This document shows, piece after piece, positions 1,020 to 63,039 of a DNA stretch of 64,000 nt (position 1 is its first letter; the number at the start of each line of letters is the position of its first letter). The position numbers were made by a program, and so were the translations under genes. This DNA comes from a virus. The stretch is from the IMG/VR virus record IMGVR_UViG_3300050120_000213, positions 35,511 to 99,510 of that record. One strand, 5' to 3'. The notes under the pieces are model-generated. The model made no database searches. It was not told where the DNA came from and worked only from the letters and a program-made list of their open reading frames with translations.

Positions 1020-2117
1020 TTATCCTTTTGACTTCACTAAAGCCATCATCTGCTCAAGGGCCGTCTGTTGTTGGGCTTCAGAAGCCAGATCAGGCGGGTG
1101 GGCAACAAGCTCCTTAATAGGATTATTAGAAGCTTGTGGCACTGTACCTGATTTAATCGGTTTCAGCGAGGTAGGTATGTTCGGTGGCGCACCATGTTTC
1201 TCTTTCTGCTCTGCAATCAATTGCAAAAGGATAGGGTAGTGGTTCCTGAAAAATTTCAAGGTGGGTTGGGTAGGGGGCTCCGCTACAGACTTTCTAATCT
1301 TGCACTCCCAGATAAACGTGCCCCAATCAGACAGGGCAAACAGCATACACTCTCGCGTTTTTTCTTCACCAATGTCCGCTTGAATATCTTTCAGCCAGCG
1401 CTGCTCTAATCTACTCATGGAGAGCTGCCTTACCCCAGTGAGTGCAGACATCTCATTCAACCAAGTAAATTGTAGAGGCTTACCCTGTTTTTTCTTCTCT
1501 GTAAGTCGCTTTAACACTTCTACGAGGTTTGTCATAGCTACATCAGAGGGTGTTGCCTCTGCCTCATTTTCATTCTGCCCTGAAAGCATTACCAGGGGTG
1601 GGGGGGTTTGTATTTCTGTGGCTGGTTTTTCAGCCACCAAAGAATCTTCTTTTAAATCTTTTCTTTTAATTAGGCATGTGGTCGTTATGCCCGAATCCAT
1701 CTGGGCGTTATGCCCGGTTGCAGCCGTACCAAGGGCGGCCATGAGTTCTTCTTTGATATCCTTTTCAATGATGCGTTCGATCACTGCTAGTACATCTATC
1801 CGAAGATGGGTCACCGGCTTACCCCGACTATTTTGATAAATAGCTTTGTGCAATAGCCCTTCGTCAGCGAGGCGTTTCATCGCGGTGCGAAGACTGCGCT
1901 CGGAGAGTCCGGTTTCCTCACACCACTCTTGGCGTGAACGCCCTACCCATTGTTGCCCATCGCGTTCAATCCATGCCCGCGTCTTACCGGCTTTAGATTG
2001 GGTGCCGTAATAGAGCAGTTGGGAAGCCAGCCGCCCTCCTTGCAGCCCAAACAGGGTATTGAGTTCGGAAAGAACGTAGCCGCCCCGGCGCTTACTTATT
2101 TCTGTCCAAGGGGTCAT
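1020..2117 (-). CDS. replication initiator protein (winged HTH)
   Basis: WVGRSRQEWCEETGLSERSLRTAMKRLADEGLL HTH typical of phage/plasmid Rep; upstream of the loader and helicase. Confidence 0.65.
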   Translation of the reverse strand: MTPWTEISKRRGGYVLSELNTLFGLQGGRLASQLLYYGTQSKAGKTRAWIERDGQQWVGRSRQEWCEETGLSERSLRTAMKRLADEGLLHKAIYQNSRGKPVTHLRIDVLAVIERIIEKDIKEELMAALGTAATGHNAQMDSGITTTCLIKRKDLKEDSLVAEKPATEIQTPPPLVMLSGQNENEAEATPSDVAMTNLVEVLKRLTEKKKQGKPLQFTWLNEMSALTGVRQLSMSRLEQRWLKDIQADIGEEKTRECMLFALSDWGTFIWECKIRKSVAEPPTQPTLKFFRNHYPILLQLIAEQKEKHGAPPNIPTSLKPIKSGTVPQASNNPIKELVAHPPDLASEAQQQTALEQMMALVKSKG

Positions 2118-2737
2118 TCTGCTTCCTCGTCAGCCATCTCGGCGTAGAGTTCTTCTATCAGGGTATTTTTTGGCACCTCTCCAAATTCGAACCTAGCTTC
2201 GGTCGCATCTTTGATAGCTGCGCTTATCCACTCTTTATCAAATTCCGTAAGCCCACCATCTAGTAAAGCCATAGCGTCCCCCATAATATGGGCTACTAAT
2301 TCCTCAAACATTGACCCATTCTTGCCCTCAACTGCCCCAAATTCTGGGTGCACCATATAAACGGTATGCTTGCCGGGAGTGCCACATAGAAAGTAAGCGT
2401 GTGGGAATTTGCCTAGTGCTGCGATGGCTTGTAATTTTTTTATTTCTTCATCGGATGGGGGGGCAGGCTTTATTTCTACAAATAAAAAATCCCAACACCC
2501 TAAAGGAATCTGTGCCTTGTACACCCAACCAACACTCCAAGTCTCTGTGTACTCCGGTGGATACCTATTTGATATTTTAAAGTCAGGCAGATAGCAACTA
2601 CTATCAGATAGTTTGTATCCTTCGTCTTCGTACACCCATTTGATGTCGCCTAGCGACTCAAAAAACACAGCCCAACGGGCTTCGAGCCGTGAGCGGAAAC
2701 GGTAACCTTTATATTTAGTTTCTATGGCTGTGACCAC
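2114..2737 (-). CDS. PD-(D/E)XK nuclease-family phage protein
   Basis: FRSRLEARWAVFF...YLPDF...FVEIK. Start reassigned to GTG at 2737 behind an AGGAG RBS. Confidence 0.7.
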   Translation of the reverse strand: MVTAIETKYKGYRFRSRLEARWAVFFESLGDIKWVYEDEGYKLSDSSCYLPDFKISNRYPPEYTETWSVGWVYKAQIPLGCWDFLFVEIKPAPPSDEEIKKLQAIAALGKFPHAYFLCGTPGKHTVYMVHPEFGAVEGKNGSMFEELVAHIMGDAMALLDGGLTEFDKEWISAAIKDATEARFEFGEVPKNTLIEELYAEMADEEAE

Positions 2738-2753
2738 AACAAGACTCCTAACG

Positions 2754-2867
2754 AAAAAAGTCCCACCTGCTCGCTCCCTCTCATTGTTTAGAGAGGGTTG
2801 GCCGACACGGACCAAAGAACCGTGCAGCGAGCATGTGGGACTTCCTTTGGGTTTTCCTAACGGCCAA
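2754..2867 (-). ncRNA. structured leader RNA (attenuator- or C4/CI-like) upstream of the replication operon
   Basis: Stems 2758-2766/2835-2843 and 2768-2775/2826-2833; hairpins 2776-2797 and 2806-2824; alternative pairings 2798-2804/2861-2867 and 2812-2817/2845-2850; followed by a U-tract. Confidence 0.6.
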
Positions 2868-2889
2868 GCTAGGCTGTACTGAGGTTTCC

Positions 2890-2917
2890 AGTATAGCACA
2901 CCCGTTAAGGAATGCAA
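2890..2917 (-). promoter_or_regulatory. sigma70 promoter
   Basis: TTGCAT-16-TATACT with TG extension. Confidence 0.7.
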
Positions 2918-2926
2918 TAGGGTTGT

Positions 2927-4365: not shown

Positions 4366-4426
4366 AGATATTTTTGCAATCAATTGCAATTTCTTCTTCA
4401 AGGGGCTAGGGGCCAATCCTCTGGTT

Positions 4427-4930
4427 TTATTTTAACCACCCCCAGTTCTTTTTTAGGTGTATGCCAAGTACAGTACTACGTGTCACACCGTATATTTCTG
4501 CAATTTTTGACTGTGGCATTTTTGTAAGTAGTAGCTTACGGATTTCTACCACATCTTTAGGAGAAAGTTTTGCCATACCATGCCTAGCGCCCCTACGTAT
4601 TCTGCCATTTCTAATGGCGTCATCTAAGTTATCTTTCCTGCCACCATACCGTAAATTACCAGGGGTGTTATTAGTGGGGGTGTCATCCCAATGCAGAACC
4701 ATTCTGCCATTCCTAGGGCCAATAAAAGCCTCCGCCACCAAAACCGAAACAAGCTTATGCCTACGCTTATTATGTTTGTACAAACTTACTTGTGGGCGTC
4801 CCCCATCTTTTATACTCGTGGCTATTATTCCTCCTGGGGTACAGGGGCGTGGAAGTGAACGAACTCGACCCTGGTTAGACACCTCATATAGCCCTTCATA
4901 ACCCTCTATAGGCAACCAATTTTCAATCAT
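4427..4930 (-). CDS. NUMOD4-HNH homing endonuclease
   Basis: ENWLPIEGYEGLYEVSNQGRVRS (NUMOD4), VLHWDDTPTNNTPGNL (HNH), C-terminal HTH; AT-rich. Confidence 0.9.
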   Translation of the reverse strand: MIENWLPIEGYEGLYEVSNQGRVRSLPRPCTPGGIIATSIKDGGRPQVSLYKHNKRRHKLVSVLVAEAFIGPRNGRMVLHWDDTPTNNTPGNLRYGGRKDNLDDAIRNGRIRRGARHGMAKLSPKDVVEIRKLLLTKMPQSKIAEIYGVTRSTVLGIHLKKNWGWLK

Positions 4931-5256
4931 ATGCCGAGCGCCACACAGCGTTTATGGAAGTTAACCAAAAGTGACCTAATACCGAACCACCCAGAGCCTT
5001 TGTAGGTGTCAGCGGCTGCGCCAGCTTCTTCTAACAATTGCTGATCGTTGCCAGGGTATTGGTACTTCTTGGGGTCGCGCTTCATCAGCGTCATAAGGGC
5101 TTCCCTCAGATAGAACGGGTCAGGGTTTCTCTTGACTAAAAAAAGTCGTTCTTCGTGTGGCAAGCGCACAAAAAAATCCCAACAGTCTTGAGATTCCTTA
5201 AGGTCTGTCACCTTCTGCTCTAACTCTCGCAGACGTAGTTCTTGTTCGGGGGTCAT
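4927..5256 (-). CDS. hypothetical protein
   Basis: ORF overlapping both neighbours by 4 bp. Confidence 0.6.
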   Translation of the reverse strand: MTPEQELRLRELEQKVTDLKESQDCWDFFVRLPHEERLFLVKRNPDPFYLREALMTLMKRDPKKYQYPGNDQQLLEEAGAAADTYKGSGWFGIRSLLVNFHKRCVALGI

Positions 5257-6434
5257 AATTTTAACCAATTACCTTTTTTGATCGCATCGTACACGATATC
5301 GGCCACTTCACTATGGGCCAACTCCGCCTTGCCCGTGGCTTCAATTGCCTCACGCAATTTATTCTGTACCGCCATGGCGGGGGCGTGGCCCGAAATGTCT
5401 TTGAACACTTCCAAACAAAATTGCTTGGCGTCTTTCAACGACAGTTTGGGTAAGTGCAATACCATATCCAAGCGCCCCGCCCGATACAGTTCCGGGGGAA
5501 TTTTTTCTATGGCGTTGGTGGTCATGACAGTAAGTACCCGACTACGGTGCTCATTAAGCCACCACAGCAACGTGCTGAGTATCCGGGTAATCACCCCCGT
5601 GTCATCAGAGTGATTGAAGATCTTTTCGATCTCATCCAGCAGAATCACGCACGGACTTTCCTGTTCGGCCAGGATTAGGCTGCGCTGCACGCGGTTTTCT
5701 GATTCACCGATGTAGCGGTTGAGCGCTTGAGAAATATCAAGACGGTAAAGTGGGGTGCCTAAGCGCCGCGCTACCGCACGGGCCGCCATCGTCTTACCTA
5801 CTCCCGGGGGGCCAGCCAGCATCACGCCGCGTGGCACCAGCTTATGGGGAGTGTTTTCAGATTCGAAGAATTTCTGATTCACCGTGAGCCATTCTTCTAG
5901 CTTAGGCGGCCACACGTAAAAATCGTCGGAATCGGTGTCTAACGGAATTAACCCCTGAATTCCCCCCGTCAACGACAGGCGGGTTTTACGCACTTCGTGC
6001 GGGAGTAGTCCACTGGTGCGGGCAATCGTCAGATCCACCACTTCACTGGCAGTCTTTAGCGATAGCCCCTTCAGAATCTTTATTAGCGCTTCACGCTGGC
6101 TGGCCTGTGTGAAGGGCTTCAGGTAGTCATGCAGCATGTCGGGTGGCGCTGGCAACATACCACCATCAAACATCAGGCTGGAGGGCTTGGAGGGATTGAT
6201 CACCACCAAACTAGCTTGGGCCTTCTTGAGCCTCTGATAGCTGTGTAGGGTTGCTACCTTTTCATCCAGCGTCCAGTAGACGTTGGGAAGTACCACGCCC
6301 TTGTCACCAACGTTGCCCCAGTCGTGAACTTTCTTGGGGCCTGCAATTGATTGCAAAACTTCCTCGCAATGCACCAGATCATCGGTAGTGCAGGAGATGA
6401 GGGGGATACGGGCTTTTATCGCGTCGTGAAGCAT
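5253..6434 (-). CDS. AAA+ ATPase (Ycf46/SpoVK-like)
   Basis: Walker A GPPGVGKT, Walker B ILLDEIEK, SRH TTN...RAGRLD. Confidence 0.9.
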   Translation of the reverse strand: MLHDAIKARIPLISCTTDDLVHCEEVLQSIAGPKKVHDWGNVGDKGVVLPNVYWTLDEKVATLHSYQRLKKAQASLVVINPSKPSSLMFDGGMLPAPPDMLHDYLKPFTQASQREALIKILKGLSLKTASEVVDLTIARTSGLLPHEVRKTRLSLTGGIQGLIPLDTDSDDFYVWPPKLEEWLTVNQKFFESENTPHKLVPRGVMLAGPPGVGKTMAARAVARRLGTPLYRLDISQALNRYIGESENRVQRSLILAEQESPCVILLDEIEKIFNHSDDTGVITRILSTLLWWLNEHRSRVLTVMTTNAIEKIPPELYRAGRLDMVLHLPKLSLKDAKQFCLEVFKDISGHAPAMAVQNKLREAIEATGKAELAHSEVADIVYDAIKKGNWLKL

Positions 6435-7452: not shown

Positions 7453-7482
7453 CGCCACTCCTAGTTTTGCAATCAATTGCAA

Positions 7483-11900: not shown

Positions 11901-11994
11901 TAAGATGGCCCGATAGTTATGGTCTTCCAAGTGTTAGGAGCATAACATTTACGGCATCTCGTCTGGAAGCCCCGCTGCAATTGATTGCAAACGC

Positions 11995-12336: not shown

Positions 12337-12382
12337 AGTGGCTCACCAAATCTTGGTTAGGTACTTTTGCAATCAATTGCAA

Positions 12383-13620: not shown

Positions 13621-13652
13621 TCCTGCCCCTAGCTAAATTGCAATTGATTGCA

Positions 13653-17513: not shown

Positions 17514-17547
17514 GGCGGTTTCCTATTCGTGCAATCAATTGCAAAAC

Positions 17548-17863
17548 TTAGCGCCCCCGCTTAGACTTCAACGCCGCCAAAATGTAACGCTGTCGGTACT
17601 GCTGGGCCTCTATAAAACCAAAATCATAAATGGACTGGCCGAAGAACTGTTCGAATCCTTCCTCACTTACCCATGTCAGGATGGTACTGACGAGACTATC
17701 GGCGTCACGCCAGTACTGTCTACTGGTGTCAAGGTCGGCAAGGAAGCTTTGTACGCGGTACAGTCCAACGACGTAGTTTGCCCATCCCAGAATTTCGTCA
17801 TCCCAGCTAAAGCTTTTACCTTTTCTGGCGTTCTGTGCATGACAGAAGCCAAAGTAAAAAAAA
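17548..17863 (-). CDS. -1 frameshift extension of the tail assembly chaperone (gpGT-like)
   Basis: T8 slippery run at 17856-17863; the -1 frame is open from just before it to TAA at 17548 and has no ATG. Confidence 0.6.
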
Positions 17864-18236: not shown

Positions 18237-18262
18237 TTGGTCTCACTCATTGAGTACGAAGT

Positions 18263-21577: not shown

Positions 21578-21605
21578 GTTAGCTCACTGCAATTGATTGC
21601 AAAAT

Positions 21606-26011: not shown

Positions 26012-27361
26012 TCAGGCTTGGGTTGCGGTGGCGGATTCAGAAATAATTCCGTATGGATCGCCACCCTTATCCCACACCCCTTGCTCACAAATCGCCAGAT
26101 GGTCAAGCAGGCTGGGTTCGCCTTCAATTAACAGTACCGAACCATCATTGAGTGCAATAGTACTATTTACCGTTCTATCGTGGAACACCACAGAAGGTGA
26201 AGTTGACATATTTTCGTTATCGAGAATTGTCACCGTGTCTTCGTCATAGATCTTGGCGATACCCCATACCTCTTTTCCCAGGATAAACGGGCAAACCATC
26301 ATACCTACCAGTCTTTCACTGAACTCAATCGAGTTCAAAACTTTCTTCTCGGGGTGTTGAAAAATCACCGCTAGACCTTGGCACCGGTCCAGAAAATCTT
26401 GATTCAGGTAGCTCTCTGGCCGACGAAAAACGTACTCGTCTTTGATTTCCACCTGAGTAACCTTGCCGTCCTTATCCTTTTTCTCGGGCTGGCCACGTCG
26501 AAAAGCCTTACCAGTGCCAGTGATACGCATCTTGTACATCGACACGTTGGCATATTTCTGTGGCGACGGCAGTGAACCATTCGTCATGGCCCGTGCGATG
26601 TGTAACTCGTTCATCTTGGTCAGACGCAAGGCCGTGACTTCTGGGGAATTGATCACTTCGAGCAGGCCGGGGATTACCGGGCCGCCCATCAACTCACCCA
26701 TCGACAACCATTGATAGCTGACGTGTTCTTCATTCAGCACCACTTCGAACGGTTTGCACACGTTGACGAAGTAGGTGAACTCTGTGCCGTCCACCAGCGT
26801 CTGTGCAATCAATTGCAATCGGCCTTCGACTTCATGGCCGGTTTCTTCCAGCACCTCACGGATGGCGGTAAATTCCAGCGTCTCACCTTCCTCGTGATGG
26901 CCGCCAAAAATTCCCCAGTGGCCCTGGTATTCGCCTTGTTCCGCCCGCAGGCCCACTAGCACCTTGCCCCCGCTGGTAATAAACAAGATGCCCGCCGCCT
27001 GCTTCTTTACTGCCTCGTCATCTTTCTTGATGATGGGGGTGGGGTCGGCAGAAAACTCCACGTCATCAGCGCGGGTTTCCGCTGAATCAGCTTTTACGTC
27101 TGGTTCAAACAGGCATTCAGTTTCTTGGATGGTTTGAATCCCCAGCGACTGCAAAAACACGAGTAAGGGCCACCGACCTTCCCCGACGCAGTATTCCTCT
27201 AACGACTGGGCGGTGTCACCGTGAGTTTCCAGAAAGCGGTCTCGCGCTGCAATCACTTGCAGTGCGGAACCCGAACCCAAATTGGCGTGCGCAATGGCCC
27301 GCTTGGCGTATTCAGCCGGGGTGAGCTTCGAGGTTTCCATAATCTGTTCGGCGGTGCTCAT
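26012..27361 (-). CDS. NUDIX hydrolase fused to DUF2213-type prohead protease
   Basis: Nudix box GGHHEEGETLEFTAIREVLEETG; C-terminal RITGTG, HP, STSPSV, LDHLAIC..GVWDKG. Confidence 0.85.
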   Translation of the reverse strand: MSTAEQIMETSKLTPAEYAKRAIAHANLGSGSALQVIAARDRFLETHGDTAQSLEEYCVGEGRWPLLVFLQSLGIQTIQETECLFEPDVKADSAETRADDVEFSADPTPIIKKDDEAVKKQAAGILFITSGGKVLVGLRAEQGEYQGHWGIFGGHHEEGETLEFTAIREVLEETGHEVEGRLQLIAQTLVDGTEFTYFVNVCKPFEVVLNEEHVSYQWLSMGELMGGPVIPGLLEVINSPEVTALRLTKMNELHIARAMTNGSLPSPQKYANVSMYKMRITGTGKAFRRGQPEKKDKDGKVTQVEIKDEYVFRRPESYLNQDFLDRCQGLAVIFQHPEKKVLNSIEFSERLVGMMVCPFILGKEVWGIAKIYDEDTVTILDNENMSTSPSVVFHDRTVNSTIALNDGSVLLIEGEPSLLDHLAICEQGVWDKGGDPYGIISESATATQA

Positions 27362-29699: not shown

Positions 29700-29799
29700 T
29701 CGTACTCCCGCTAAAATATGGCGAATTCTTCCGTCGTGACATTGTACGGTTCAGCAGGTCTACTTGCCTACTCATAAGAATTGCAATCAATTGCAAAAC

Positions 29800-33331: not shown

Positions 33332-34714
33332 CTAGGCCGCCACGTCGAATATCCTAGACTCAGAGGTTACATTAAAAACTCTTATCTCGGAATAGACATT
33401 TGACGATTGGAAGTCATCTACCGCTGTGCCCAACGTGGCTGTGGCAGTCGAAGTTTCTACCCCAACAAAGAAATTCTGGGTCAGTCGGGCGGTAGCGGTG
33501 TTGCTTTCCACCGTAGATGCCGCCAACAAAATCCCAGTATCCAGCGGGGCTTTGACTACAGACTGTTCAATGGCTTGGGCGGCAAACGTCACTACCGCAA
33601 CAATCGTGTTGGTGGCGGTGCTACTTTCATTTGCGGCGGCACGTAAAGTCAGGCTGGTGTGTAAGTTCACACTCGGGGTGCTGAACTCGGATGCCGTTGC
33701 AATCAATTGCAATGACGTACTTAGCCGAGCAGTTGTCAGCAATTGCTCTTTAGCCACAGAACTTAGGGTTAAATTAGTCTCTAACCCCGGAGTGCCCGTG
33801 CTTGATTCCCTGGCTGTGGCTGCCAACGTCGTTGCCGCAACAAGATGTGCGCCAGCCCCACTCGATTCTGCCGATGCCGACAGTAGCTGTATCGAGGTGG
33901 CTAGTGCAGGCTGGCCCACCGAATGCTCAACAGCAGGGGCCGCCAACGTGGTGTGAGTCTCTAATTGCGAAGCACTAAACGACCCCTCGTTAGCTGCTGC
34001 CACCATTTGAATTGAGGTGTGCAGGCTCTCCGTAGCGGCGCTCGTTTCACTGGCCGCTGCTTTGAAATTCACCACAGCTACTATTAAAGACCCCGCTGCA
34101 CTAGATTCTATGGCTTGAGCTTTTACCGTAATCGAAGTACCGAGCGCGGACAGGTCTGTACTAATTTCTTGGGCAGACGCCGCAACAAGAATGCTGGTAG
34201 CTAAATTGGAGGCACCTAACGAATTTTCTACCGCAGCGGCTGCAGCAGCATTTGAAAGCGCGGCAGTGCTTTTGCTTTTCTCTTTTGCGCCTGCGGCCAT
34301 GGCAGCGCTAAGCCCAGCGGTAACTAGGCTGATCTCTGTTGAAGCCGCCGCTAAATTAATGCTCGTGCGTAGGTTAGACGAAGTACTACTAGTTTCAGTG
34401 GCCGCCGTACTCAGGCTGCTAAGCATGTTCGCCATAGCTGACGAAGATTCACTCGCTACAGCCACTAGGGCAATACTGGTTTTAAGCGGAGCAACAGCCG
34501 TTGCGGATTCAGTTCCTTGAGTAGCCAGCAACAGGTTATTAACTAGAGCGGGGATACTCGTAGATACTTCTGTGGCGGCTGCCCCTAGAGTAATACTGGT
34601 GGTTAATGGGGCGGCTGTTGTTGGTTGCTCAACAGCATCAGCAGACAAGTAAATGCCCGCCCCGAGGTTTTCGGAGATTCCTCGCTCTGAGATCGCGCCG
34701 AAACCTAAAGGCAT
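33332..34714 (-). CDS. Ala/Ser/Thr-rich repeat fibre protein
   Basis: About 19-aa repeats L.TSI.L.A.A.E.S; N-terminal LGFGAISE. Confidence 0.75.
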   Translation of the reverse strand: MPLGFGAISERGISENLGAGIYLSADAVEQPTTAAPLTTSITLGAAATEVSTSIPALVNNLLLATQGTESATAVAPLKTSIALVAVASESSSAMANMLSSLSTAATETSSTSSNLRTSINLAAASTEISLVTAGLSAAMAAGAKEKSKSTAALSNAAAAAAVENSLGASNLATSILVAASAQEISTDLSALGTSITVKAQAIESSAAGSLIVAVVNFKAAASETSAATESLHTSIQMVAAANEGSFSASQLETHTTLAAPAVEHSVGQPALATSIQLLSASAESSGAGAHLVAATTLAATARESSTGTPGLETNLTLSSVAKEQLLTTARLSTSLQLIATASEFSTPSVNLHTSLTLRAAANESSTATNTIVAVVTFAAQAIEQSVVKAPLDTGILLAASTVESNTATARLTQNFFVGVETSTATATLGTAVDDFQSSNVYSEIRVFNVTSESRIFDVAA

Positions 34715-36230: not shown

Positions 36231-38090
36231 TCACTTTATGCCCCTATAGCCCCGATATACCTTATAAACCCGCGTTTCTGCATATACCGGCACCGGTTTG
36301 CGAGGCGCAACAAGGGTTCCTAGTAGGGCAGTTGTGCTCGATGTCTGTACCGCCCCGGCTGCCAAATGCTCTTTGACGTCGATAAACGACGCCGTAGCAA
36401 ACGAGCTTTCATTGGCTACGGCGGCCAGCATCAACACCGTTTGCAGGTCCACCACAGCCACACTGACTTCTTGTGCATCGGCACTGAGTACGTTTGCGGT
36501 ATCTAATCCAACTTGTGCGGCGGAAAACTCTAAAGCATCTGCCGATAGCAGCACCCCAGTGCTTAAATCTACCTCAGCCACGACAGTTTCGATGGTTTGG
36601 GCCACCAAATTGATCGAGATAGTTAAATCTACTGAGGTGGTGCTAGTCTCGCTGGCCGTTGCAATCAATTGCAAAACCGTCACCAGTTCCGACGTAGTGG
36701 TGAATTGTTCTACAGCCCCAGCCACTAGCGTTAAATCAACAGCAATAACGGCATTGGCCGTACTAGCCTCAATCGTCGCAGCAGCGAGCGTGGCACTAGG
36801 GCTAGCGAATTCCGCCGACGCTGTAGAATTTTCCGACGAATCGGAGGCCAGCGTGATACTGGTGACTATCCCTATGTTGCTAGTTGACGTCTCTATGGGC
36901 GTAGCCATAAAGATCGTATTAGTCACAAGCGGTGCGGCACTGGTACTGGTCTCAATAGCGGTTACCGCTAAAACAAGATTCGTCGTTAGCTGCGCCGCGC
37001 CCGTTGACGTTTCTGTACTACTTGCCGCCAAGGTGTTTGCCAGCGCCGCGCCCGCCGTGCTCTGTTCGGTAGCCGTTGCAGCAAACGTCGTCACCGCGAT
37101 AAGCGGGGCGGCTGTCGTAGCTACCTCGGACGTCGAGGACTTCATTATTATGGAAGTCGTGAGCGGGGCCGTTACAGTAGCCGTCTCACCCGCCGCAGCG
37201 GCAAACGTATTGGCTAAGGCTGCCGTAGCGAGTGAAGTTTCGACTGCAGCAGGGCTATCAGTGATGCTCGTGGTTAGCGCTGCCACCCCCGTCGATAATT
37301 CAGTTGGAGTGGCACCCAACACTGCCCCGCCGCCACCCGCCGTATAGGTGATCGTGATCTGGCCGCCGCCACCCGCACCGCCCGTGTTGGAACCCGTGTC
37401 ACCCGACCCAGCGCCGCCACCACCGCCGGGAAGTCCGCCCGCTGCGCCGTTACCCGCTGTTGCCCCAGCGATATCCCCGCCGCCACCGCCACCACCACCC
37501 AGGGCGTTAGATGCCCCCGCTGTAGGCCCGACAGTCGAACTAGTGCCGCCAGTGCCGCCAGCACCAGCCCCAGGGCTACTACCGCCCGCCCCGCCTACAG
37601 TAGTGCCACCAGCAGTTCCCACACCCCCTGTACCGGCAGCGCTAGCTGCACCCCCACCACCCGGGCCTGAGTGCGCTGAAGTGCCAGCCCCGCCCGCCCC
37701 ACCAGAGAAGGGGGTTGTGCCCACGCCTGAAGTGCCAACTCCCCCCAACCCGCCAGCCGTGCTGATACTGACAGCCCCGCCCTTCGCACCGACAGAACTA
37801 CCGGCTAGGGTTGTGCCGTTAAACCAAGTATCGGTACCCGCAACTGCGTTTTTGCTTGAAGTTTCTCCGGTGCCGCCAACCCCGATACTAATCGTGATTG
37901 ACGCCCCAGGGGTGACGGTAAGGTTGGCGATGGAGTTATAGCCCCCAGCACCCCCGCCACCTTTAGCACTTGAATTATTATTTGAGGAACCCCCAGACCC
38001 CGCGCCCCATGCCTCTACCAGCGTCAGCGAAGTGACGCCAGCGGGCACTGTCCAGCTAGTACCGGAAGTGAGAACGACGACTGTGGCCAT
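36231..38090 (-). CDS. glycine-rich-domain repeat fibre protein
   Basis: SWTVPAGVTS..VEAWGAG Gly-rich domain followed by repeats like those of 33332-34714. Confidence 0.75.
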   Translation of the reverse strand: MATVVVLTSGTSWTVPAGVTSLTLVEAWGAGSGGSSNNNSSAKGGGGAGGYNSIANLTVTPGASITISIGVGGTGETSSKNAVAGTDTWFNGTTLAGSSVGAKGGAVSISTAGGLGGVGTSGVGTTPFSGGAGGAGTSAHSGPGGGGAASAAGTGGVGTAGGTTVGGAGGSSPGAGAGGTGGTSSTVGPTAGASNALGGGGGGGGDIAGATAGNGAAGGLPGGGGGAGSGDTGSNTGGAGGGGQITITYTAGGGGAVLGATPTELSTGVAALTTSITDSPAAVETSLATAALANTFAAAAGETATVTAPLTTSIIMKSSTSEVATTAAPLIAVTTFAATATEQSTAGAALANTLAASSTETSTGAAQLTTNLVLAVTAIETSTSAAPLVTNTIFMATPIETSTSNIGIVTSITLASDSSENSTASAEFASPSATLAAATIEASTANAVIAVDLTLVAGAVEQFTTTSELVTVLQLIATASETSTTSVDLTISINLVAQTIETVVAEVDLSTGVLLSADALEFSAAQVGLDTANVLSADAQEVSVAVVDLQTVLMLAAVANESSFATASFIDVKEHLAAGAVQTSSTTALLGTLVAPRKPVPVYAETRVYKVYRGYRGIK

Positions 38091-38212: not shown

Positions 38213-38232
38213 AGGATTGCAATTGATTGCAG

Positions 38233-39683: not shown

Positions 39684-39694
39684 ATATATTGCAA

Positions 39695-40207
39695 TCAATT
39701 GCACAAATCTCGTGCTAAAGCTAACAGCCCAGGGTGGCCACTAGTCATAACGTCTAGTAGCAAACGCTTTTCTTCGAGGTATACCCCCGCAAAATTTGGA
39801 TCATGCATGACAATACTAGACGTGTTACTGATCAAATCAGCGTACTTGATTGTCTGAACCCAGCCCGGTGCCGCCGATAATCGTGCCCGAGAAGCGGATT
39901 TACGTGTAGCACGATTGCCTACTTCTAAATCAGAAAGCTGGGTTACACCATACGCGACGTTAAGGCCAAATTTTTCCACCAGAGTTTCTTCGGTCACTCC
40001 TTGATCTTCTCGGCAATCATGTAACCACGCCACTGCAATCATCTGCTCAAAACTACACCAACTAGTGCCAGTAATTTCATGGGCTACCGTTGCCACAATG
40101 CCCGCCACTTCAGCTAAGTGGTCGGCATAAGGCTGCTCAGTGTACTTACGTTTTTGGCCACGGTGAACATGGCAGGCAAACTGCATAGCAGCAAATGCTT
40201 CGTTCAT
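39695..40207 (-). CDS. HD-domain small alarmone hydrolase-like protein (Mesh1/SpoT-HD family)
   Basis: H.GQ.RK...PY..H...VA, AWLHDCRED, IKYADLISN. Confidence 0.85.
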   Translation of the reverse strand: MNEAFAAMQFACHVHRGQKRKYTEQPYADHLAEVAGIVATVAHEITGTSWCSFEQMIAVAWLHDCREDQGVTEETLVEKFGLNVAYGVTQLSDLEVGNRATRKSASRARLSAAPGWVQTIKYADLISNTSSIVMHDPNFAGVYLEEKRLLLDVMTSGHPGLLALARDLCN

Positions 40208-42956: not shown

Positions 42957-43177
42957 ACGAAAGGTCCTTCCTCGCGGTCCAACGGGCATTGAAAAAACTT
43001 GGCCCATTGCTCGGCCAGGGTCTTGGCGACTGATAACGGTAGTGAGCCACCTGGGGTGAGGTGTTTGCGCTCGCCTTGGTCATTGACCAGTGCTACGTAG
43101 CAGAATCGCCCCAACTTGAAGTTCTGAATTTCTAGCACGACGCGCATAGCTTTCCCCGGTTGCAATCAATTGCAAAA

Positions 43178-44096: not shown

Positions 44097-44321
44097 AGCG
44101 GATTGCAATTGATTGCAGCGCTTACGGCTTCAAATTCTCGGTGAGATGCAAGCGCATTTCATCCACCCAGGCTTCAAACACTGCCCTAGGGTTGTTCGTG
44201 TTCACGACATGACGTATTACCGCCATTTCCGCCAGCGTTTTGAGATCTTTATACGTTTCTGCCGTAAACCCGCAACTGACTTCAACAAGTGCGTACCGGT
44301 CAATCGTGTACATTGTCGCCA

Positions 44322-45835: not shown

Positions 45836-45869
45836 AGGATTATTTGCTGATTTTTGCAATTGATTGCAA

Positions 45870-47164: not shown

Positions 47165-47380
47165 CAGTGAGTACCCATAGAGTAAGGACTCCACGCGGGG
47201 AAATTACAGAGTAATTCGATTGATTGCCCCGTGATTGCACTTTCTTCACTGACTGCAGCCAGCCAATCTTCGTAGCAGAACGTCATATGTGCTATCAGGC
47301 TGTGCACCATCCGAGCGCGGTACTCCATATACAGTACGAGTAGCATTCTTCACTCCATTGCAATCAATTGCACAGCCTAT

Positions 47381-47947: not shown

Positions 47948-48444
47948 TCCAGACGTGCAAAAGCCGATTGGTCTACATTCGCAATCGGCACGGCCCCACT
48001 CAAATTGTAGGCACGAGCCGATCCCGGGTCATGCCACTGCATTTTACAACGGTATTACTTTCACTCTATGCCACTACTACGTATCGTTTCCTGTCTTAGC
48101 GCCGGACGATCCCGTAGGGCCATTGCCAAGTGTGCTACTCCGATACCAGCAGTTTAACTCAGTTAGAATTCGCTTGCAAGTGGGAATGGTGTTGTACGTT
48201 GAGGCGTTCTTCGCATACCGCACAGTAATACCACGACCAGCCGATGCCGTTGTCGTGATAGGCACCGGTAATGTGACCCAATTGAGCGCAATGCTCGCGC
48301 AATTTCATGCGTTCTTCCCGCTGTTGAGCGTCAAAATCGACCATCAGGCGCTGGATTTCGGCACGGCGTTCCTTGGTCATGGCGGCCAAACGCTTGCGGA
48401 TTTCTTTATGAGTCATACCCACTCCATTTTGCAATTGATTGCAG

Positions 48445-49059: not shown

Positions 49060-49135
49060 TATGCCCTCCCAAAAGTGCATCTTACCACTTTTGGCAGATT
49101 GAGTCAAACGTATTGAGTTTATGGTACTACCCGTG

Positions 49136-51943: not shown

Positions 51944-52122
51944 TTATTTTGCAATTGATTGCAATTAGTCGTTACAGAAGTCGTTATACCATGCCGCTAA
52001 GTAATCTTCATAACAGCCAGGGTCTCTACCTTTTCCTCGTTGGTGTCTAGCTTTATCATTGAATCAGGGTTGCAGCTATTAAAGTTTTCATCATGGTCCT
52101 TTGCACTCAATTGCAATTGTAG

Positions 52123-52557
52123 TTATGGGGTTGCTGGTTGCCCCCACCAGGGTAAGGCGCTGAGATCTACGCCCCAGGTATCAGGACGTTCTTCCACCGC
52201 AATCTTACTGAATTGATGGGAGTGACTGTAATTCTTGAACTGATTGTCTAAATTCGGTCGGCCAGCATACAACGCCGACAACACCGGGGATAACAGCCCG
52301 TGCTTCACCAAAAATTGATGGAAGCGTTTGCCGGTCATCGGGCTGGGGTAAGCGATCTTGGTGGTCTTACTCAGCATCCCCAGCGTAATGCCGGTGCTGA
52401 CCGAGTGAAACAGCATATCGACTACCGGGCGTTGATCCATTCGAGGTCGGCCACAATTTCTGGCACTATCGAGTTGATTAAGAATCGGGGCAATGATTTG
52501 ATCCACTGCCTTCCATTCTGCATCAGTCAATGGACTGTATGATGTGTCTTTGCCCAT
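52123..52557 (-). CDS. IS5/DUF4096-like transposase N-terminal DNA-binding domain, no DDE domain
   Basis: LTDAEW....P...GRPR.D.R.VVD......TG....YPSP.T..RF.....HGL. Confidence 0.65.
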   Translation of the reverse strand: MGKDTSYSPLTDAEWKAVDQIIAPILNQLDSARNCGRPRMDQRPVVDMLFHSVSTGITLGMLSKTTKIAYPSPMTGKRFHQFLVKHGLLSPVLSALYAGRPNLDNQFKNYSHSHQFSKIAVEERPDTWGVDLSALPWWGQPATP

Positions 52558-53026: not shown

Positions 53027-53286
53027 GACGCACTCTCAGTGGTATGCACTTAGGCAGTGTAAGCTCTTTTGCAATCAATTGCAAATTTCATTTATGGCTG
53101 TTCTGCCAGCAATTTGCGTATGTAGTCTTCGTCACGGATGCTGTAGTCCACGGTCCAAACGAGCATTTTGGTGAGGCGGTCGAACATGCCGCCCACTTCG
53201 GTTTGGCCGATGTAAAACTTCAGCGAGCCAGCTTGGCACACGTCTTGCGCCAATTCTTCATAGGTTTTCTTAACCATGGTGATCCC

Positions 53287-53481
53287 TTAATTGTTGCCCC
53301 AACCCAATTGCTTGGAGATTGCTGGGGTAAAGCCACCAAAATGCGACCAGAGCCGGTTCTTGGCGTAGTTGCCCACTTCCCCTTGCCAAAAGGTATCACC
53401 AATCGATGAGAAGCGCCAGAGGCGGCACAGTTCTAAGTGGGATAGCGCATCGATTCCGGCTTTCTGTTCGTCAGTCATCAC
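53287..53481 (-). CDS. hypothetical phage protein
   Basis: L..LWRF...G...GG.TP.ISK.LGW. Confidence 0.65.
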   Translation of the reverse strand: MMTDEQKAGIDALSHLELCRLWRFSSIGDTFWQGEVGNYAKNRLWSHFGGFTPAISKQLGWGNN

Positions 53482-53704
53482 TTGCCACCTTCTTTATTAG
53501 CCAGTCATTAACAAATTGAATGCCCGCACCCTCAAGCGCTTCACGAATGGCTTTCGCGTTATTTGCCATAGGCAGGCGAGCGTGGCGCTCAAAATCTGCC
53601 ACGGTAGAAATAGCCACTTGGGCATTCTTAGCCAAATCTTTTTGGGTCCAACCCAATAGCGCCCGAGCGGCTTTTACTTGTTCTGGCGAAAGGCTTTTAC
53701 TCAT
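53471..53704 (-). CDS. XRE-family HTH transcriptional regulator
   Basis: PEQVKAARALLGWTQKDLA..AQVAISTVADFE. Confidence 0.9.
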   Translation of the reverse strand: MSKSLSPEQVKAARALLGWTQKDLAKNAQVAISTVADFERHARLPMANNAKAIREALEGAGIQFVNDWLIKKVASDD

Positions 53705-54478: not shown

Positions 54479-54494
54479 TGTTTCACGTGAAACA
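54479..54494. promoter_or_regulatory. parS: perfect chromosomal-type parS site
   Basis: TGTTTCACGTGAAACA, intergenic. Confidence 0.8.
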
Positions 54495-54495
54495 A

Positions 54496-54864
54496 CTACC
54501 TTTGTTTCAGCGGTAGCCCCGCCTCCGCCAACACATCACGCGCCAGCACCATCAAGGCGTAGATATGCGTTTCGCCAGGGTCTGCACTGGCAATTGATTG
54601 CAGTGCCGCGATCATCTTCGGCATCGCTACAATACGCCGCGCCAACTCCACGCCGGGAACATAAGGGGGATCGGTTTCTGTGTCATCTTCGAAATGAATT
54701 ACGACCTTGGCAATGTTGCCATGCCGATCTGTGGCATTAATCGTCTGCCAGTTGTCTTCGATATCGCCCAGTTCTAAATCATCCAACATGGACAACACTT
54801 GGGCACGATGGTGCTCTTTCCACTTTTTGTCTGAAGCTTCCGTCAATTCGCGGGCAGTACTCAT
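54496..54864 (-). CDS. hypothetical protein
   Basis: LARRIVAMPKMIAALQ pattern common in phage proteins. Confidence 0.6.
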   Translation of the reverse strand: MSTARELTEASDKKWKEHHRAQVLSMLDDLELGDIEDNWQTINATDRHGNIAKVVIHFEDDTETDPPYVPGVELARRIVAMPKMIAALQSIASADPGETHIYALMVLARDVLAEAGLPLKQR

Positions 54865-55243: not shown

Positions 55244-55256
55244 AGAGTTTTTGCAA

Positions 55257-55535
55257 TCAATTGCAGGAATCAACCTGTTCTTCGCTGGGGTGACTACGTT
55301 GCATCGGGAACCACAGGGCTAGTCCAAACACAATATTCGCGGCGCACCACGCGTGTTCGGATAGCTGCAGCGAGCCGTTGAGGTCCAAGGCCATAATCAG
55401 CCCCGCCACACCCGCCACGACCAGGGCAGCGCCCTTGAGTATCTTGGACGAGATATAGATCTCGATGGTGTGATCGCTATTGGGCACCGGTACTACTTGT
55501 GTGGTGCGCCCCGCCAAACGTTGTTTCAATGACAT
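55257..55535 (-). CDS. membrane protein
   Basis: Two TM helices. Confidence 0.6.
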   Translation of the reverse strand: MSLKQRLAGRTTQVVPVPNSDHTIEIYISSKILKGAALVVAGVAGLIMALDLNGSLQLSEHAWCAANIVFGLALWFPMQRSHPSEEQVDSCN

Positions 55536-57619: not shown

Positions 57620-57837
57620 AGGCGTTTGCAATCAATTGCAGCTTGCAGCCCATCTGCTGCCGCTTGTTCAATAGGGTCGGTCGAAGCCAAGATGACCTCT
57701 GGACTCCATAGGCCGTGTGGATTGCAATCACAGTTCGTTCCTGCGCCACCACACCCGCACCCATAGCCATCCCCCCAGGGGATATGAAGGTGGTTCTCAC
57801 ACACCCACCCCGTGTCCAGGCACTTGTGGCAAGTCAT
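57616..57837 (-). CDS. Cys-rich hypothetical protein
   Basis: C..C.D.GWVCENH...CGGAG..C.CNP. Confidence 0.6.
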   Translation of the reverse strand: MTCHKCLDTGWVCENHLHIPWGDGYGCGCGGAGTNCDCNPHGLWSPEVILASTDPIEQAAADGLQAAIDCKRL

Positions 57838-60973: not shown

Positions 60974-61065
60974 GCACCTCCCTTAGTCGCCGACTGGACG
61001 GCTGGCACCACTTGGGAAATATAACTACCGTTAGTCATGACTATCCTTTTTGCAATCAATTGCAA

Positions 61066-61521
61066 TTACATGTACACCCCAGCCAACCCCCGTTCGATCA
61101 GATCATCAATAATGACGATGCCTTCGGGGGTAGCCATGACAGTGATTGGCCGCTGGTTTCCTAACGCGGGGATCTCACTCTGTAACCAGTGCGTTGCAGC
61201 CCCCCGGTCACCGCACAAACCCATCAACTTTAGCGCCACAGGTACCACTTTTTCGAGGTGCTCGGTGTCAGCCAGCGGCATAACCGCCTGCAAAAACCCA
61301 GCCCACCAGCTAAAATCAGAGCGACCATCGGGACGGCTCAGAGGAATGCGCAGTGCCCAGTACCCGTCTGTACGCTCCACCCACTCTCCGAAATTGAGGC
61401 TATTCCCCTCGGTGTCTTCGACTTCTACAAAACGAAATTCAGGGGGGCGAGTGCCGCTTGCGTGCCTAGCAAACACAATATCCACTTGAGCGGCGGGCTG
61501 ACTGCCTTCTTCGGTGTTCAT
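61066..61521 (-). CDS. protein with MbcA/ParS/Xre antitoxin C-terminal toxin-binding domain
   Basis: GD..AA..WL.....ALG..RP......PEG...I..LIER...GVYM C-terminus. Confidence 0.75.
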   Translation of the reverse strand: MNTEEGSQPAAQVDIVFARHASGTRPPEFRFVEVEDTEGNSLNFGEWVERTDGYWALRIPLSRPDGRSDFSWWAGFLQAVMPLADTEHLEKVVPVALKLMGLCGDRGAATHWLQSEIPALGNQRPITVMATPEGIVIIDDLIERGLAGVYM

Positions 61522-61813
61522 AGCGCCCCGAGCAGGAAGCAAAACACACAAAATACCCACAAAGCCCACACGCTGTGATCTCCGTGAGTGGTGAGGTACA
61601 CCGCCATCATGGCAAGGCTCAGCCCAAACGCGAGGATAAATCCACGTCGAATTAGTGCGATCATAACAATGGGTTCCTTTTGGGGGGGCGGTCGTACGTG
61701 GGCAGGGAGTGACGGCCCCACAACTTGGGCAGGACATACCCAATCGACACCAGGGCAATAAGACATACCCACGCCGCAACCCACAGCATTGTGTTAATAG
61801 ACATGATTTAACC

Positions 61814-62404
61814 TTAGCAACTGCAAGAAAAGAAATTGCCTTTGTCAGTCGGATCAACGTGGTGATCCGTGATCAGCTCATAGTGATCCCAAAACTCCAC
61901 TGGGACACTCATGCTTTCGAACTTACCACCCTCACTCCAGTAATCCCCGTACTCAACGTACGACCTAGCTCGGTCCAACAATTCGCTATAACCCACCTCG
62001 ATTTCATCGGCGTAATTCTGCATCCAGGCAATAGCCTTGCTGACTTCATCCGAGGGTGGTGCTACGGCAGCGACTACAGTTGGGCCTTCCATATCCTTAA
62101 ACTTCGGGTGGGTCCAGACATGGCGCAAGCTCGTGATTTGACGAGGATACACCACTAGCCAAAAATGTTCACCTTTCTGGATGAACTCATTCAGAAACGG
62201 ATCAACAATTCCTACCGGATCATCGCAAGCCCCAACCCCATTATCGTTGGTCACAAAGCCCACATGCTGGCCGGGGTGCAGCGTTTCTACTGCGTAGACC
62301 GGTTCCACCGCTAAATGGATCGCATCACGCCCAGCGCCTTCACCAAGGATGGTGCCCAGGGTTTCGAGTGCGTCGGTTGCCACCGTGTGTTTTGCCCCAC
62401 TCAT
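61814..62404 (-). CDS. conserved hypothetical phage protein
   Basis: RDAIH.AV, GIVDPFL, ITSLRHVWTHP, FFSCSC. Confidence 0.75.
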   Translation of the reverse strand: MSGAKHTVATDALETLGTILGEGAGRDAIHLAVEPVYAVETLHPGQHVGFVTNDNGVGACDDPVGIVDPFLNEFIQKGEHFWLVVYPRQITSLRHVWTHPKFKDMEGPTVVAAVAPPSDEVSKAIAWMQNYADEIEVGYSELLDRARSYVEYGDYWSEGGKFESMSVPVEFWDHYELITDHHVDPTDKGNFFSCSC

Positions 62405-62769
62405 TTATTTCTCCCAGCTAAATGTGCTTCGTTTTCGAGTTGATCCAACTTGAGCGTGGCACGGGCTTCGGCCATCTTGACGAATGAGTTATGTAACATC
62501 CCAATATACAGAGAACCCAGCAACTCAGTCCGATCACGGGGGGCCGTAAGCAAGTTGCTCGTTTGGGTCGCCCCATCAGTATGGAACCACGTAAAGGCTT
62601 CTTGGATATCCCCCGGCGTGGGGGCAGTCATAAGGCGGGCGTATTCTATACTTTCAAACTCAGCCTTCTGAAGATCAAATTCTTCATCTTCGGCCAAACG
62701 CTGGGCACGGCGATCCAAGTCGCTTTGCAAGCGGGCATCGCCTATCGTTTCGGTTTTCTGCAGATCCAT
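62401..62769 (-). CDS. hypothetical protein (early cassette)
   Basis: AATGGAGT RBS plus promoter. Confidence 0.65.
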   Translation of the reverse strand: MDLQKTETIGDARLQSDLDRRAQRLAEDEEFDLQKAEFESIEYARLMTAPTPGDIQEAFTWFHTDGATQTSNLLTAPRDRTELLGSLYIGMLHNSFVKMAEARATLKLDQLENEAHLAGRNK

Positions 62770-62801
62770 TTCGAACTCCATTTCGGGGGCAGCTATGTAT
62801 T

Positions 62802-62829
62802 AATATAGCATAGCCACCAAATTTGTCAA
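62802..62829 (-). promoter_or_regulatory. sigma70 promoter
   Basis: TTGACA-16-TATATT. Confidence 0.75.
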
Positions 62830-63039
62830 ATCAAATCGGTGGGGTTTGGCGCACAATTCGGGTATCCGCCACCGATTCATAGCCCCCCATGCGCAACGGT
62901 GTAGTCGGCATTAACAGGATCTCGACTATCACACCATCTTGGCGGGCAAGGTTGGCAAGCAACTCCGCCTTCATACGCCAGTGCGCTAACTTCACTTCGT
63001 CTAAGTAAGTCATATTGCCCCCGCTGCAATTGATTGCAA

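Follow-up and report, generated by a model that had tools for sequence, protein, structure and literature searches.

A 14-bp palindrome, TGCAATCAATTGCA, recurs along the whole of a 64,000-nucleotide (nt) stretch of viral DNA, bases 35511-99510 of IMG/VR record IMGVR_UViG_3300050120_000213 (hereafter the window). The complete record is 99,510 bp long, is rated complete by CheckV and is labelled G000 in our comparisons. With a probability of about 0.5, we regard this motif as the operator of a phage-encoded, sequence-specific dimeric protein that binds double-stranded DNA and controls or organises the phage genome. The protein in question is probably the product of a hypothetical gene, here called c23, which is inherited together with the motif across a large clade of phages.

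An exact scan found 26 copies of TGCAATCAATTGCA in the window, 16 on the plus strand and 10 on the minus strand, the first at 1212-1225 and the last at 63025-63038 (Table 1), together with three near-variants carrying one mismatch and two carrying two. No exact copy appeared in 100 dinucleotide-preserving shuffles of the window, which gave an expectation of 0.00 copies. The whole record holds 40 exact copies, 22 on the plus and 18 on the minus strand, despite about 85% of its open reading frames (ORFs) lying on the minus strand (gene calls are crude ORF calls throughout, except for phage DLP5, for which the authors' annotation was used). The centre of the motif is CA/TG in all 40 copies and the spacer is constant, with 2 nt between the 6-bp arms or, counted otherwise, 4 nt between 5-bp arms. 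Apart from a frequent T..A extension, the flanks of the copies are all different; the unit is a 14- to 16-mer, and the uniqueness of the flanks excludes a longer repeat or a miniature inverted-repeat transposable element (MITE). A mobile repeat of the repetitive extragenic palindromic or MITE type was also rejected because flank conservation is absent and the coding copies arose by substitution and not by insertion. An intrinsic terminator was rejected as well, since that would call for a stable GC-rich hairpin ahead of a U-tract, whereas the hairpin here is weak (-2.5 to -3.5 kcal/mol) and the sense-strand sequence 3' of it is A-rich or unique. Our counts agree with the initial annotation of the window, which had reported 26 exact copies (16 and 10 per strand), three variants, a maximum gap of about 5.2 kb and symmetric arms around an invariant CA/TG centre, and had judged their number to be far above chance.

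The copies are placed at regular distances. Over the whole record, neighbouring copies are separated by 2472 bp on average (range 392-5751 bp), and the widest gap within the window is 5216 bp (21588 to 26804). A spacing test, which the same annotation had suggested, gave a coefficient of variation of 0.49 versus 0.96+/-0.14 for random placement (p<5e-5), and the regularity also holds against a null model that draws gene junctions and coding positions at random. Intergenic copies make up about half of those in the source virus and commonly lie 0-5 nt past the stop codon of the upstream gene, and 22 of the 40 lie no more than 30 nt after a stop codon, compared with 16% of random positions. Roughly one third are intragenic, use all three frames and encode the peptides LQ(S/L)IA, AINC or CNQL. 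The initial annotation had assigned the copies mostly to gene junctions without a promoter; the junctions account for about half of them, but the description fits neither the intragenic third nor the 9 of 40 copies that lie 6-19 nt upstream of -35 boxes.

Comparison of orthologous genes revealed that selection acts on the DNA word itself. For this comparison, eight motif-bearing IMG/VR contigs (G001-G008) were fetched. The motif occupies the same alignment column of the initiator gene in G000, G002, G006 and G008, of the AAA ATPase and SF2 helicase genes in G000 and G006, of the RuvC gene in G000 and G001, and of the ParB-like gene in G001 and G006. Wherever a column is shared in this way, the 14 bases are exact while the adjoining codons and residues have diverged, and at two alignment columns the centre is flipped between genomes, CA versus TG. 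Orthologues without the motif carry similar, non-identical peptides (LQLLT, LQTIT, LHLIA; in the AAA ATPase, LQLLT or LQTIT). An exact motif amid diverged codons indicates that coding copies are created and kept by substitution, for which the protein sequence pays. Degenerate copies are few: beside its 40 exact copies, G000 has 4 with one mismatch (6 degenerate copies when two mismatches are allowed), and the corresponding ratios of exact to one-mismatch copies are 50:2 in G002 and 47:3 in G006. Taken together, regular spacing and costly coding copies hint at an action of limited range, for which bridging, spreading and coverage are candidates.

When IMG/VR was scanned for the pattern, many contigs of about 93-101 kb proved to contain between 20 and 50 copies. 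The eight fetched relatives range from 38.6 to 62.4% in GC content, yet one and the same word ranks first among the 12-mers of G000, G001, G002, G003, G006, G007 and G008, and TGCAATCAATTGCA is the top repeat in the distant relatives of 47-62% GC, among them the cultured Stenotrophomonas phages DLP5 (26-27 copies) and DLP3 (25). What the source virus has in common with the other motif-bearing phages is only a replication and recombination module, at 25-60% amino acid identity, which comprises DnaB, a Toprim primase, an SF2 helicase, RecA, an SSB-like protein, an exonuclease, RuvC, a Holliday junction resolvase, a DnaD/O-like initiator, an AAA ATPase, PolA, a ParB_N-like protein and several unknowns. 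Its virion genes are unrelated to those of the relatives. The motif accompanies this module from genome to genome and tracks neither host nor virion genes.

One of the unknown proteins of the module led to cultured relatives, namely Stenotrophomonas phages DLP5 (27 copies of TGCAATYRATTGCA) and DLP3 (25 motif copies), Rhodobacter phage RcZahn (8 copies, three of them with a TA centre), Rhizobium phage RHph_TM16 (nine copies of TGCAACATATTGCA plus related words) and Vibrio phage SIO-2 (six copies of TGAAATTGATTGCA and five of TGCAATTAAGTGCA). The clade is made up of phages of about 80-120 kb, including Delepquintavirus (DLP5/DLP3), RcZahn, RHph_TM16, SIO-2-like phages and hundreds of uncultured relatives, and its cultured members infect Stenotrophomonas, Rhodobacter, Rhizobium, Vibrio and Aeromonas. 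The scan of relatives, also proposed in the initial annotation, thus found both the position and the sequence of the motif conserved in very distant relatives. DLP5 is a temperate phage that was isolated as a phagemid (PMC5834331), and DLP3 is temperate, forms stable lysogens and has been suggested to have a phagemid lifestyle (PMC7326821). Neither the DLP3 paper nor that on R. capsulatus phages mentions the repeat, and searching full texts for the 12-mer core gave no relevant paper; the 'DLP3' of a Nucleic Acids Research (NAR) 2026 paper is an unrelated Acinetobacter phage. The two orientations are equally frequent in G003, as in G000, whereas 21 of 22 copies in G007 and 29 of 30 in G008 share one orientation, the sense strand carrying the CA form. 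The flanks in G008 lengthen the dyad to 18 nt, and the RNA hairpin there reaches -6.8 kcal/mol (z = -3.5); in most genomes it stays at the weak values given above (z about -1.3).

Among 185,579 bacterial species genomes, nearly all of the matches listed were single copies, and clusters among these matches were confined to two phage-like islands. The island in Paraburkholderia elongata spans 20 kb (contig ~47-67 kb; L290:11286-20000, L291:1-9000), lies beside an IS5 transposase and carries accessory or defence-like genes, including those for an ADP-ribosylglycohydrolase, a DUF4145 protein, a 1441-aa NOV_C protein and a Sel1-repeat protein. It holds 10 exact copies versus 6 with one mismatch (9 when two-mismatch copies are included). 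No protein common to the phages was found in the island, nor was c23 found in that genome. Because of its 10:9 ratio of exact to decayed copies, we read the island as a decaying relic, probably of cargo from a phage of this clade.

Variation of the motif was surveyed at 80 IMG/VR loci encoding c23. At about two in three of these, a leading repeat is a version of TGCAA-N4-TTGCA with a strict 4-nt spacer. The perfect palindrome TGCAATTAATTGCA occurs 27 times in the 20.7 kb of one locus, L370 (IMGVR_UViG_3300025572_000001, 66939-87616), and 7-14 times in five other loci, while other versions include GGCAATCAATTGCC, TGAAATTAATTTCA, TGACATTAATGTCA, TGCAGACATCTGCA, CGCAATTGATTGCA and TGCAATCGATTGCA. 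The arms change symmetrically from lineage to lineage. The centre is nearly always a pyrimidine-purine step; the main clade keeps the asymmetric CA/TG, and a CG centre was seen only in G004 and G005. Single-arm variants that would disrupt a hairpin are common within lineages, for example CGCAATTGATTGCA (seven copies) and TGAAATTGATTGCA (six copies). Site density among the relatives ranges from <1 to 27 per 20 kb. Judged from sequence, symmetric arm change around a fixed spacer is the signature that a homodimeric reader of duplex DNA would leave when co-evolving with its operator.

A second line of evidence is promoter linkage. The source virus has 26 near-consensus sigma-70 promoters (TTGACAaa-N13-TGc-TATACT), all on the sense strand and none antisense, each followed by a conserved leader and the ribosome-binding site ..GGAATGGAGTyCGAAATG. 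At nine of the 26, a motif copy precedes the -35 box by 6-19 nt (in seven of them by 6-9 nt), and at a tenth promoter the copy lies in the leader. The 6-9 nt arrangement was also observed at 5 of 13 promoters in G001, 9 of 19 in G002 and 3 of 7 in G006, and the promoter-linked share in G000 and these three relatives is 35-47% of the strong promoters. The clearest natural example of promoter-linked copies is L370, where about 15 of the 27 copies lie 6-8 nt upstream of CTTGCA-N17-CTAGAG sequences, each directly after a stop codon, and where the part from 12.5 to 20.6 kb has about one promoter-linked copy per small gene. We take these promoter-like sequences to be of the alphaproteobacterial type. 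Upstream of c23 itself, the order of stop codon, motif, 7-9 nt and -35 box is common to G000, G001, G002, G003, G006, DLP5, RcZahn and RHph_TM16. Each of these eight genomes places its own version of the motif there (TGAAATATGTTGCA in TM16), so that the site is kept across gamma- to alpha-proteobacterial phages, and no conserved gene other than c23 shows so constant an upstream site.

The c23 gene lies just outside the window, at 22686-23486 of the G000 record on the minus strand, and encodes 267 aa. It belongs to phrog_17202, has no Pfam or NCBIfam match and falls into at least 394 metagenome clusters, all annotated as hypothetical. No complete motif-bearing genome lacks it, and neither does any cultured relative; the orthologues are DLP05_067 in DLP5 and DLP3_062 in DLP3. 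Its sequence contains a ParB-like helix-turn-helix (HTH) pattern, F..F....FGF.SRKA.YL..IY, with the invariant residues F80, R93, K94, A95, Y97, L98, I101, Y102, W120 and K122. In the AlphaFold2 model, the predicted local distance difference test score exceeds 87 over residues 27-155, and the protein begins directly with a helical DNA-binding domain. We predict from this model, with moderate confidence, that c23 is a ParB/KorB-type HTH DNA-binding domain without the N-terminal domain that hydrolyses cytidine triphosphate (CTPase domain). In VIA-align comparisons, the model matched the ParB DNA-binding domain with parS (6s6h; Z 7.8, 106 residues, 3.5 A), Spo0J (1vz0; Z 7.2), the KorB DNA-binding domain with its operator (1r71; Z 6.5), KorB (8qa8; Z 6.1), and SopB (3mky), VirB (3vwb) and P1 ParB (1zx4) at Z 4.1-4.8. 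A search of the ESM Atlas returned weak leads only, to DUF3102 and DUF1016/ParB-HTH, and a profile search against PDB sequences found nothing meaningful and left KorB homology undetected. The helix R-K-A-x-Y-L, otherwise invariant in c23, varies where the motif varies: a TTAA centre is accompanied by YRKA(T/S)YW in the putative recognition helix, GGCAA arms are accompanied by DRTIRYM, and the CATA centre of TM16 by YRTAMYQ.

From these observations we infer that a protein binds the motif, that c23 is the binder and that its effect is repressive or organising. The sites form two classes, as is the case for the KorB operators on plasmid RK2. The first consists of sites directly upstream of the -35 boxes of strong early-type promoters, centred at about -50 and including the promoter of c23 itself; protein bound there would modulate initiation and most probably repress it, repression being the likelier effect because the linked promoters are already near consensus. 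The second consists of the junction and intragenic sites, which leave no site-free stretch longer than about 5 kb and which may block read-through transcription or serve as regularly spaced points of anchoring or bridging. Since DLP5 persists as a phagemid, and DLP3 probably does too, genome-wide silencing, organisation of the plasmid-prophage, or both would be the likely role.

Several points weigh against this explanation. First, the single best structural match of the c23 model is Raf1 (8ilb; Z 9.1), which we take not to be a DNA binder, and the ParB-family matches returned by Foldseek have probabilities of 0.7-0.89 but E-values of about 0.5, so that the fold evidence is moderate (Z 6-8). 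c23 has no Pfam ParB_N match and lacks the CTPase domain that lets KorB slide, and no ParA or KorA partner was found. Second, the helix-motif changes amount to about three clade-level events, which are not phylogenetically independent, and lineages sharing the c23 core YRKAMYL use different arms; the helix evidence is thus suggestive and not conclusive. The basis of the proposed link between c23 and the motif is co-inheritance, yet the P. elongata genome has its ten exact copies without c23, and a sizeable group of c23 loci (with helix ..YLISIY and others) have few or no copies near the gene. Third, promoter-linked copies were looked for in G003, G007 and G008 and none were found, and a simple repressor would not usually be centred at about -50. 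In addition, the strand bias in G007 and G008 is unexplained by a symmetric dimer on duplex DNA. The single orientation in these two genomes, their lack of promoter-linked copies and the 18-bp dyad keep a strand-specific rival alive.

A more ambitious form of the operator hypothesis, which we hold only tentatively, is that c23 and the palindrome constitute a new phage genome-management system, in which a CTPase-less ParB-type domain acts on a lattice of sites and combines promoter control with organisation or segregation of the plasmid-prophage. The lattice, with one site per 0.8-3 kb, would be maintained even within coding sequence. The polarity in G007 and G008 would then have been acquired, which would imply an interplay with a directional machine, that is, transcription, replication or packaging.

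An alternative that we consider rather unlikely is a centromere-like or nucleoid-organising array, in which a phage protein bridges, condenses or tethers a phagemid or replicating genome of about 100 kb for segregation or compaction, after the manner of RacA at ram, Noc at NBS or ParB at parS, and has no primary role in transcription. The regular spacing, the capped maximum gap and the coding copies where junctions are lacking would all suit such an array, as would the phagemid state of DLP5 (and probably of DLP3), in which no ParA was noted, the ParB-like DNA-binding domain predicted for c23 and the single perfect host-type parS of the source virus. The module also encodes a MerR-like winged HTH protein (DLP05_060 in DLP5) whose best structural match is RacA bound to DNA (5i44; probability 1.0, root-mean-square deviation 1.4 A, 57 residues). 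However, this MerR/RacA-like gene was not found in L370 (27 copies), L386, L372, L387, RcZahn, TM16, G004 or G005, although its syntenic slot is present in the densest-motif relatives that lack it; because it is missing from those relatives, its product cannot be the general reader. A density that varies so widely among relatives is also odd for an essential structural lattice, and the fixed 6-9 nt that separate sites from -35 boxes in several lineages suggest that RNA polymerase is contacted.

It is less probable still that the motif works as a single-strand hairpin, either in lagging-strand priming and helicase loading or in the processing, stability or translation of mRNA at gene junctions. 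The strand bias of G007 and G008, with the CA form on the sense strand, and the extended hairpin of G008 are what such a signal would produce. Okazaki fragments are on the scale of 2-3 kb, and the 2-3 kb spacing of the copies, with few very short or very long gaps, matches this size; the motif is also co-inherited with the DnaB, primase and RecA module, and copies lie directly past stop codons or 10-30 nt ahead of start codons. Against this, the hairpin is weak in most genomes, variants that break pairing are common, and the identity of the arm bases is conserved across the clade beyond what mere pairing demands. The orientation is 1:1 in G000 and G003 even with most G000 genes on one strand, and a fixed distance to the -35 box would be senseless for an RNA or priming signal.

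We regard as improbable the idea that the motif is the target of a phage nickase or recombination enzyme (an HNH endonuclease, or the exonuclease, RecA and resolvase set) that would produce T5-like nicks or hotspots from which recombination-dependent replication or module exchange begins. The source virus does carry a full recombination module together with several NUMOD4/HNH genes, sites are found beside genes both there and in the Paraburkholderia accessory-gene island, and regular spacing would suit the restart of replication, but the HNH genes are not conserved among the motif-bearing genomes, the positions are conserved inside orthologues and not at the borders of insertions or deletions, and promoter-linked geometry is unexpected for nick sites. 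The least credible explanation, and a very improbable one, is a conserved host factor (a transcription factor of the LacI or another type, or a nucleoid protein) exploited by the phages: the motif formally resembles LacI-family operators (TGNAANCGNTTNCA) and has an easily kinked pyrimidine-purine centre, but the hosts span alpha-, beta- and gamma-proteobacteria, the variants track phage lineage and not host, and bacterial matches listed are single chance copies except in the two phage-like islands. The resemblance to LacI sites noted in the initial annotation is borne out by the CG centre of G004 and G005, but is formal only, as no LacI-type protein was found among the approximately 60 proteins that were scanned; the further possibility that the motif is a host transcription factor site is contradicted by the single bacterial copies among the matches listed.

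The other candidate readers fared less well than c23. The initial annotation had named an XRE protein (53471-53704), a DUF4096-like protein (52123-52557) and a basic protein (45420-45863), but these proteins and their neighbours have no homologue in any motif-bearing relative and are private to G000. Its fourth candidate, the initiator (1020-2117), was found only in G000, G001, G002, G006, G008, DLP5, RcZahn and TM16 and is missing from several motif-bearing genomes, and nothing supports the suggestion that a protein coats the whole genome. A reading of the motif as a lambda CII-like TTGC-N6-TTGC site was rejected as a coincidence of the palindrome, since it appears only with the T flank and in the wrong position relative to the -35 box. 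The ParB_N-like protein (phrog_26387) is conserved in most relatives and is fused to a methyltransferase-like part in G002. It was demoted to a minor candidate because it has GGHHRW (GxHR) in place of the CTP-binding GERR and sits in a glycosyltransferase/aminotransferase cluster. That cluster lies outside the window, at 15847-22091 of the G000 record, and contains genes for the ParB_N-like protein, a glycosyltransferase, a DegT/DnrJ aminotransferase and a PIG-L deacetylase, with HNH genes interspersed. DLP3 lists a comparable set (ParBc, glycosyltransferase, aminotransferase, epimerase and methyltransferase). The products of this cluster may attach a sugar to DNA or to the cell surface.

Dispersed palindromes and related sites are known from other systems, and the initial annotation was reasonable in comparing the motif with stoperators, P1 C1 operators and nucleoid-organising sites. 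The stoperators of Cluster A mycobacteriophages (L5 gp71) are asymmetric 13-mers that are read by a monomer and oriented with transcription. They resemble the present motif in being tens of sites across a temperate phage genome, mostly in short gaps within operons, and have been proposed to stop read-through in the lysogen; here, however, the site is a dyad with 1:1 orientation in G000, and a stoperator-like polarity is found only in G007 and G008. The closest described phenomenon is that of the Cluster O mycobacteriophages, whose genomes each carry more than 30 copies of a 17-bp palindrome, 5'-TGTTCGGNNNCCGAACA, for which a dimeric DNA-binding protein was predicted (PMC4351075, whose discussion also treats the stoperators). 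There too the inverted arms are invariant, the short centre is asymmetric and mostly fixed, no orientation rule applies, about one third of the sites are intragenic and many lie at junctions (PMC4351075). The Cluster O sites differ in sequence, phage clade and host phylum, mostly show no promoter linkage and become denser towards one end of the genome, whereas ours are regularly spaced; they are also confined to one cluster of five close phages, whereas the present motif is conserved, with variants, from Vibrio to Rhizobium phages.

The KorB/OB system of RK2 (PMC11790492) likewise has many copies of a 13-14 bp palindrome across a mobile replicon that is kept as a plasmid, as DLP5 is, with some sites abutting -35 boxes and others distal or intragenic. 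Its reader has a ParB-type HTH, with which the c23 model aligns at Z 6.1-6.5. Unlike the 12 sites on RK2, the 40 sites here are regularly spaced, frequently lie in coding sequence and are unrelated in sequence, and the KorA, TrbA and IncC partners were not found. Because c23 lacks the N-terminal CTPase domain, sliding-clamp behaviour would not be expected of it. Strictly speaking, c23 does not belong to the KorB family, and we take KorB/OB as the closest working analogue and the stoperators as the closest analogue in phages. RacA/ram and Noc/NBS also rely on tens of dispersed 14-bp palindromes and on small HTH readers (MerR-like and ParB-like, respectively), but they are host chromosomal systems, and no membrane- or pole-anchoring part was identified here.

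Dispersed palindromes of the Cluster O kind are known but unexplained, and the same phenomenon is found here in a very large clade of environmental phages. The system is tractable, as it offers the cultured, lysogenising DLP5 and DLP3, a candidate reader of unknown family, natural variants of motif and helix, and a conserved site that looks autoregulatory. A solution would reveal what silences or organises phagemid-type prophages of about 100 kb and by what means, would give a function to a widespread family of hypothetical proteins and could explain the cost of writing a 14-mer regularly into coding sequence. The motif is also a practical marker for this clade and for its remnants in metagenomes and bacterial genomes.

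Table 1. Motif copies, one-mismatch variants and near-consensus sigma-70 promoters in the window (window coordinates; nt, nucleotides)
Feature	Position	Strand	Context
Motif copy	1212..1225	+	within DnaD/O-like initiator gene (1020-2117, minus strand), peptide LQLIA
Motif copy	4375..4388	+	9 nt upstream of -35 box of sigma-70 promoter (TTGACA at 4365, minus strand)
Motif copy	6342..6355	-	within AAA ATPase gene (5253-6434), peptide LQSIA
Motif copy	7468..7481	+	gene junction, 1 nt past stop
Motif copy	11976..11989	-	intergenic; 5 nt past stop, 45 nt ahead of baseplate wedge gene start
Motif copy	12368..12381	+	intergenic, 1 nt past stop
Motif copy	13639..13652	-	intergenic, abuts stop; next start 18 nt on
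Motif copy	17530..17543	+	intergenic, 16 nt upstream of lytic tail protein gene start
Motif copy	21588..21601	-	intergenic; 4 nt past stop, next start 10 nt on
Motif copy	26804..26817	+	within 449-aa gene (26012-27361); breaks up an otherwise ~8 kb gap
Motif copy	29782..29795	+	intergenic, 4 nt past stop, upstream of portal gene
Motif copy	33698..33711	+	within 460-aa gene (33332-34714)
Motif copy	36660..36673	+	within 630-aa tail-fibre-related gene (36231-38123)
Motif copy	38218..38231	-	intergenic, 1 nt past stop
Motif copy	39690..39703	+	overlaps HD-domain gene stop; 6 nt upstream of -35 box, promoter 39683
Motif copy	43161..43174	+	junction, 3 nt past stop
Motif copy	44104..44117	-	7 nt upstream of -35 box, promoter 44096
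Motif copy	45855..45868	-	1 nt past stop; 19 nt upstream of -35 box, promoter 45835
Motif copy	47359..47372	+	leader, downstream of -10 box of promoter 47408, 12 nt ahead of start codon
Motif copy	48430..48443	-	1 nt past stop of HNH-like gene 48445-49182
Motif copy	51950..51963	-	6 nt upstream of -35 box, promoter 51943 reading toward small terminase gene
Motif copy	53070..53083	+	intergenic, 43 nt upstream of 112-aa gene
Motif copy	55252..55265	+	overlaps a stop codon with its internal TGA; 8 nt upstream of -35 box, promoter 55243
Motif copy	57627..57640	+	7 nt upstream of -35 box, promoter 57619
Motif copy	61051..61064	+	junction, 1 nt past stop
Motif copy	63025..63038	-	1 nt past stop of DNA polymerase A C-terminal gene (63040-63945); next start 11 nt on
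One-mismatch variant TGCAATCACTTGCA	27248..27261	+	
One-mismatch variant TGCACTCAATTGCA	52102..52115	+	
One-mismatch variant TGCAATCAATTGCC	54589..54602	-	within 181-aa gene
Promoter	4365	-	
Promoter	6706	-	
Promoter	6972	-	
Promoter	39683	-	
Promoter	42956	-	
Promoter	44096	-	
Promoter	45835	-	
Promoter	47408	-	
Promoter	49107	-	
Promoter	51943	-	
Promoter	55243	-	
Promoter	56007	-	
Promoter	56129	-	
Promoter	57619	-	
Promoter	62829	-	

Some other features of the source virus were also observed. A perfect parS of the host chromosomal type (TGTTTCACGTGAAACA) occurs once in G000, in an intergenic position at 54479-54494 of the window, and was not found in any of the eight fetched relatives; it may allow the phage to borrow the ParABS system of its host for plasmid-like maintenance. 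The palindrome itself was rejected as a chromosomal parS, since its sequence differs from TGTTNCACGTGAAACA and the true parS stands apart from it. Sheath, baseplate and portal genes identify G000 as a myovirus, and no close cultured relative of its virion genes was found. The family A DNA polymerase gene is split by the ends of the record, so that only its C-terminal 301 aa lie in the window (63040-63945). Genes resembling NUMOD4/HNH_3 homing endonucleases are scattered through G000, for example at 4427-4930 and 48445-49182 of the window. Directly downstream of the motif-linked promoter at 51943, a 331-aa protein (50470-51465) contains a small terminase domain of the Sf6 type.

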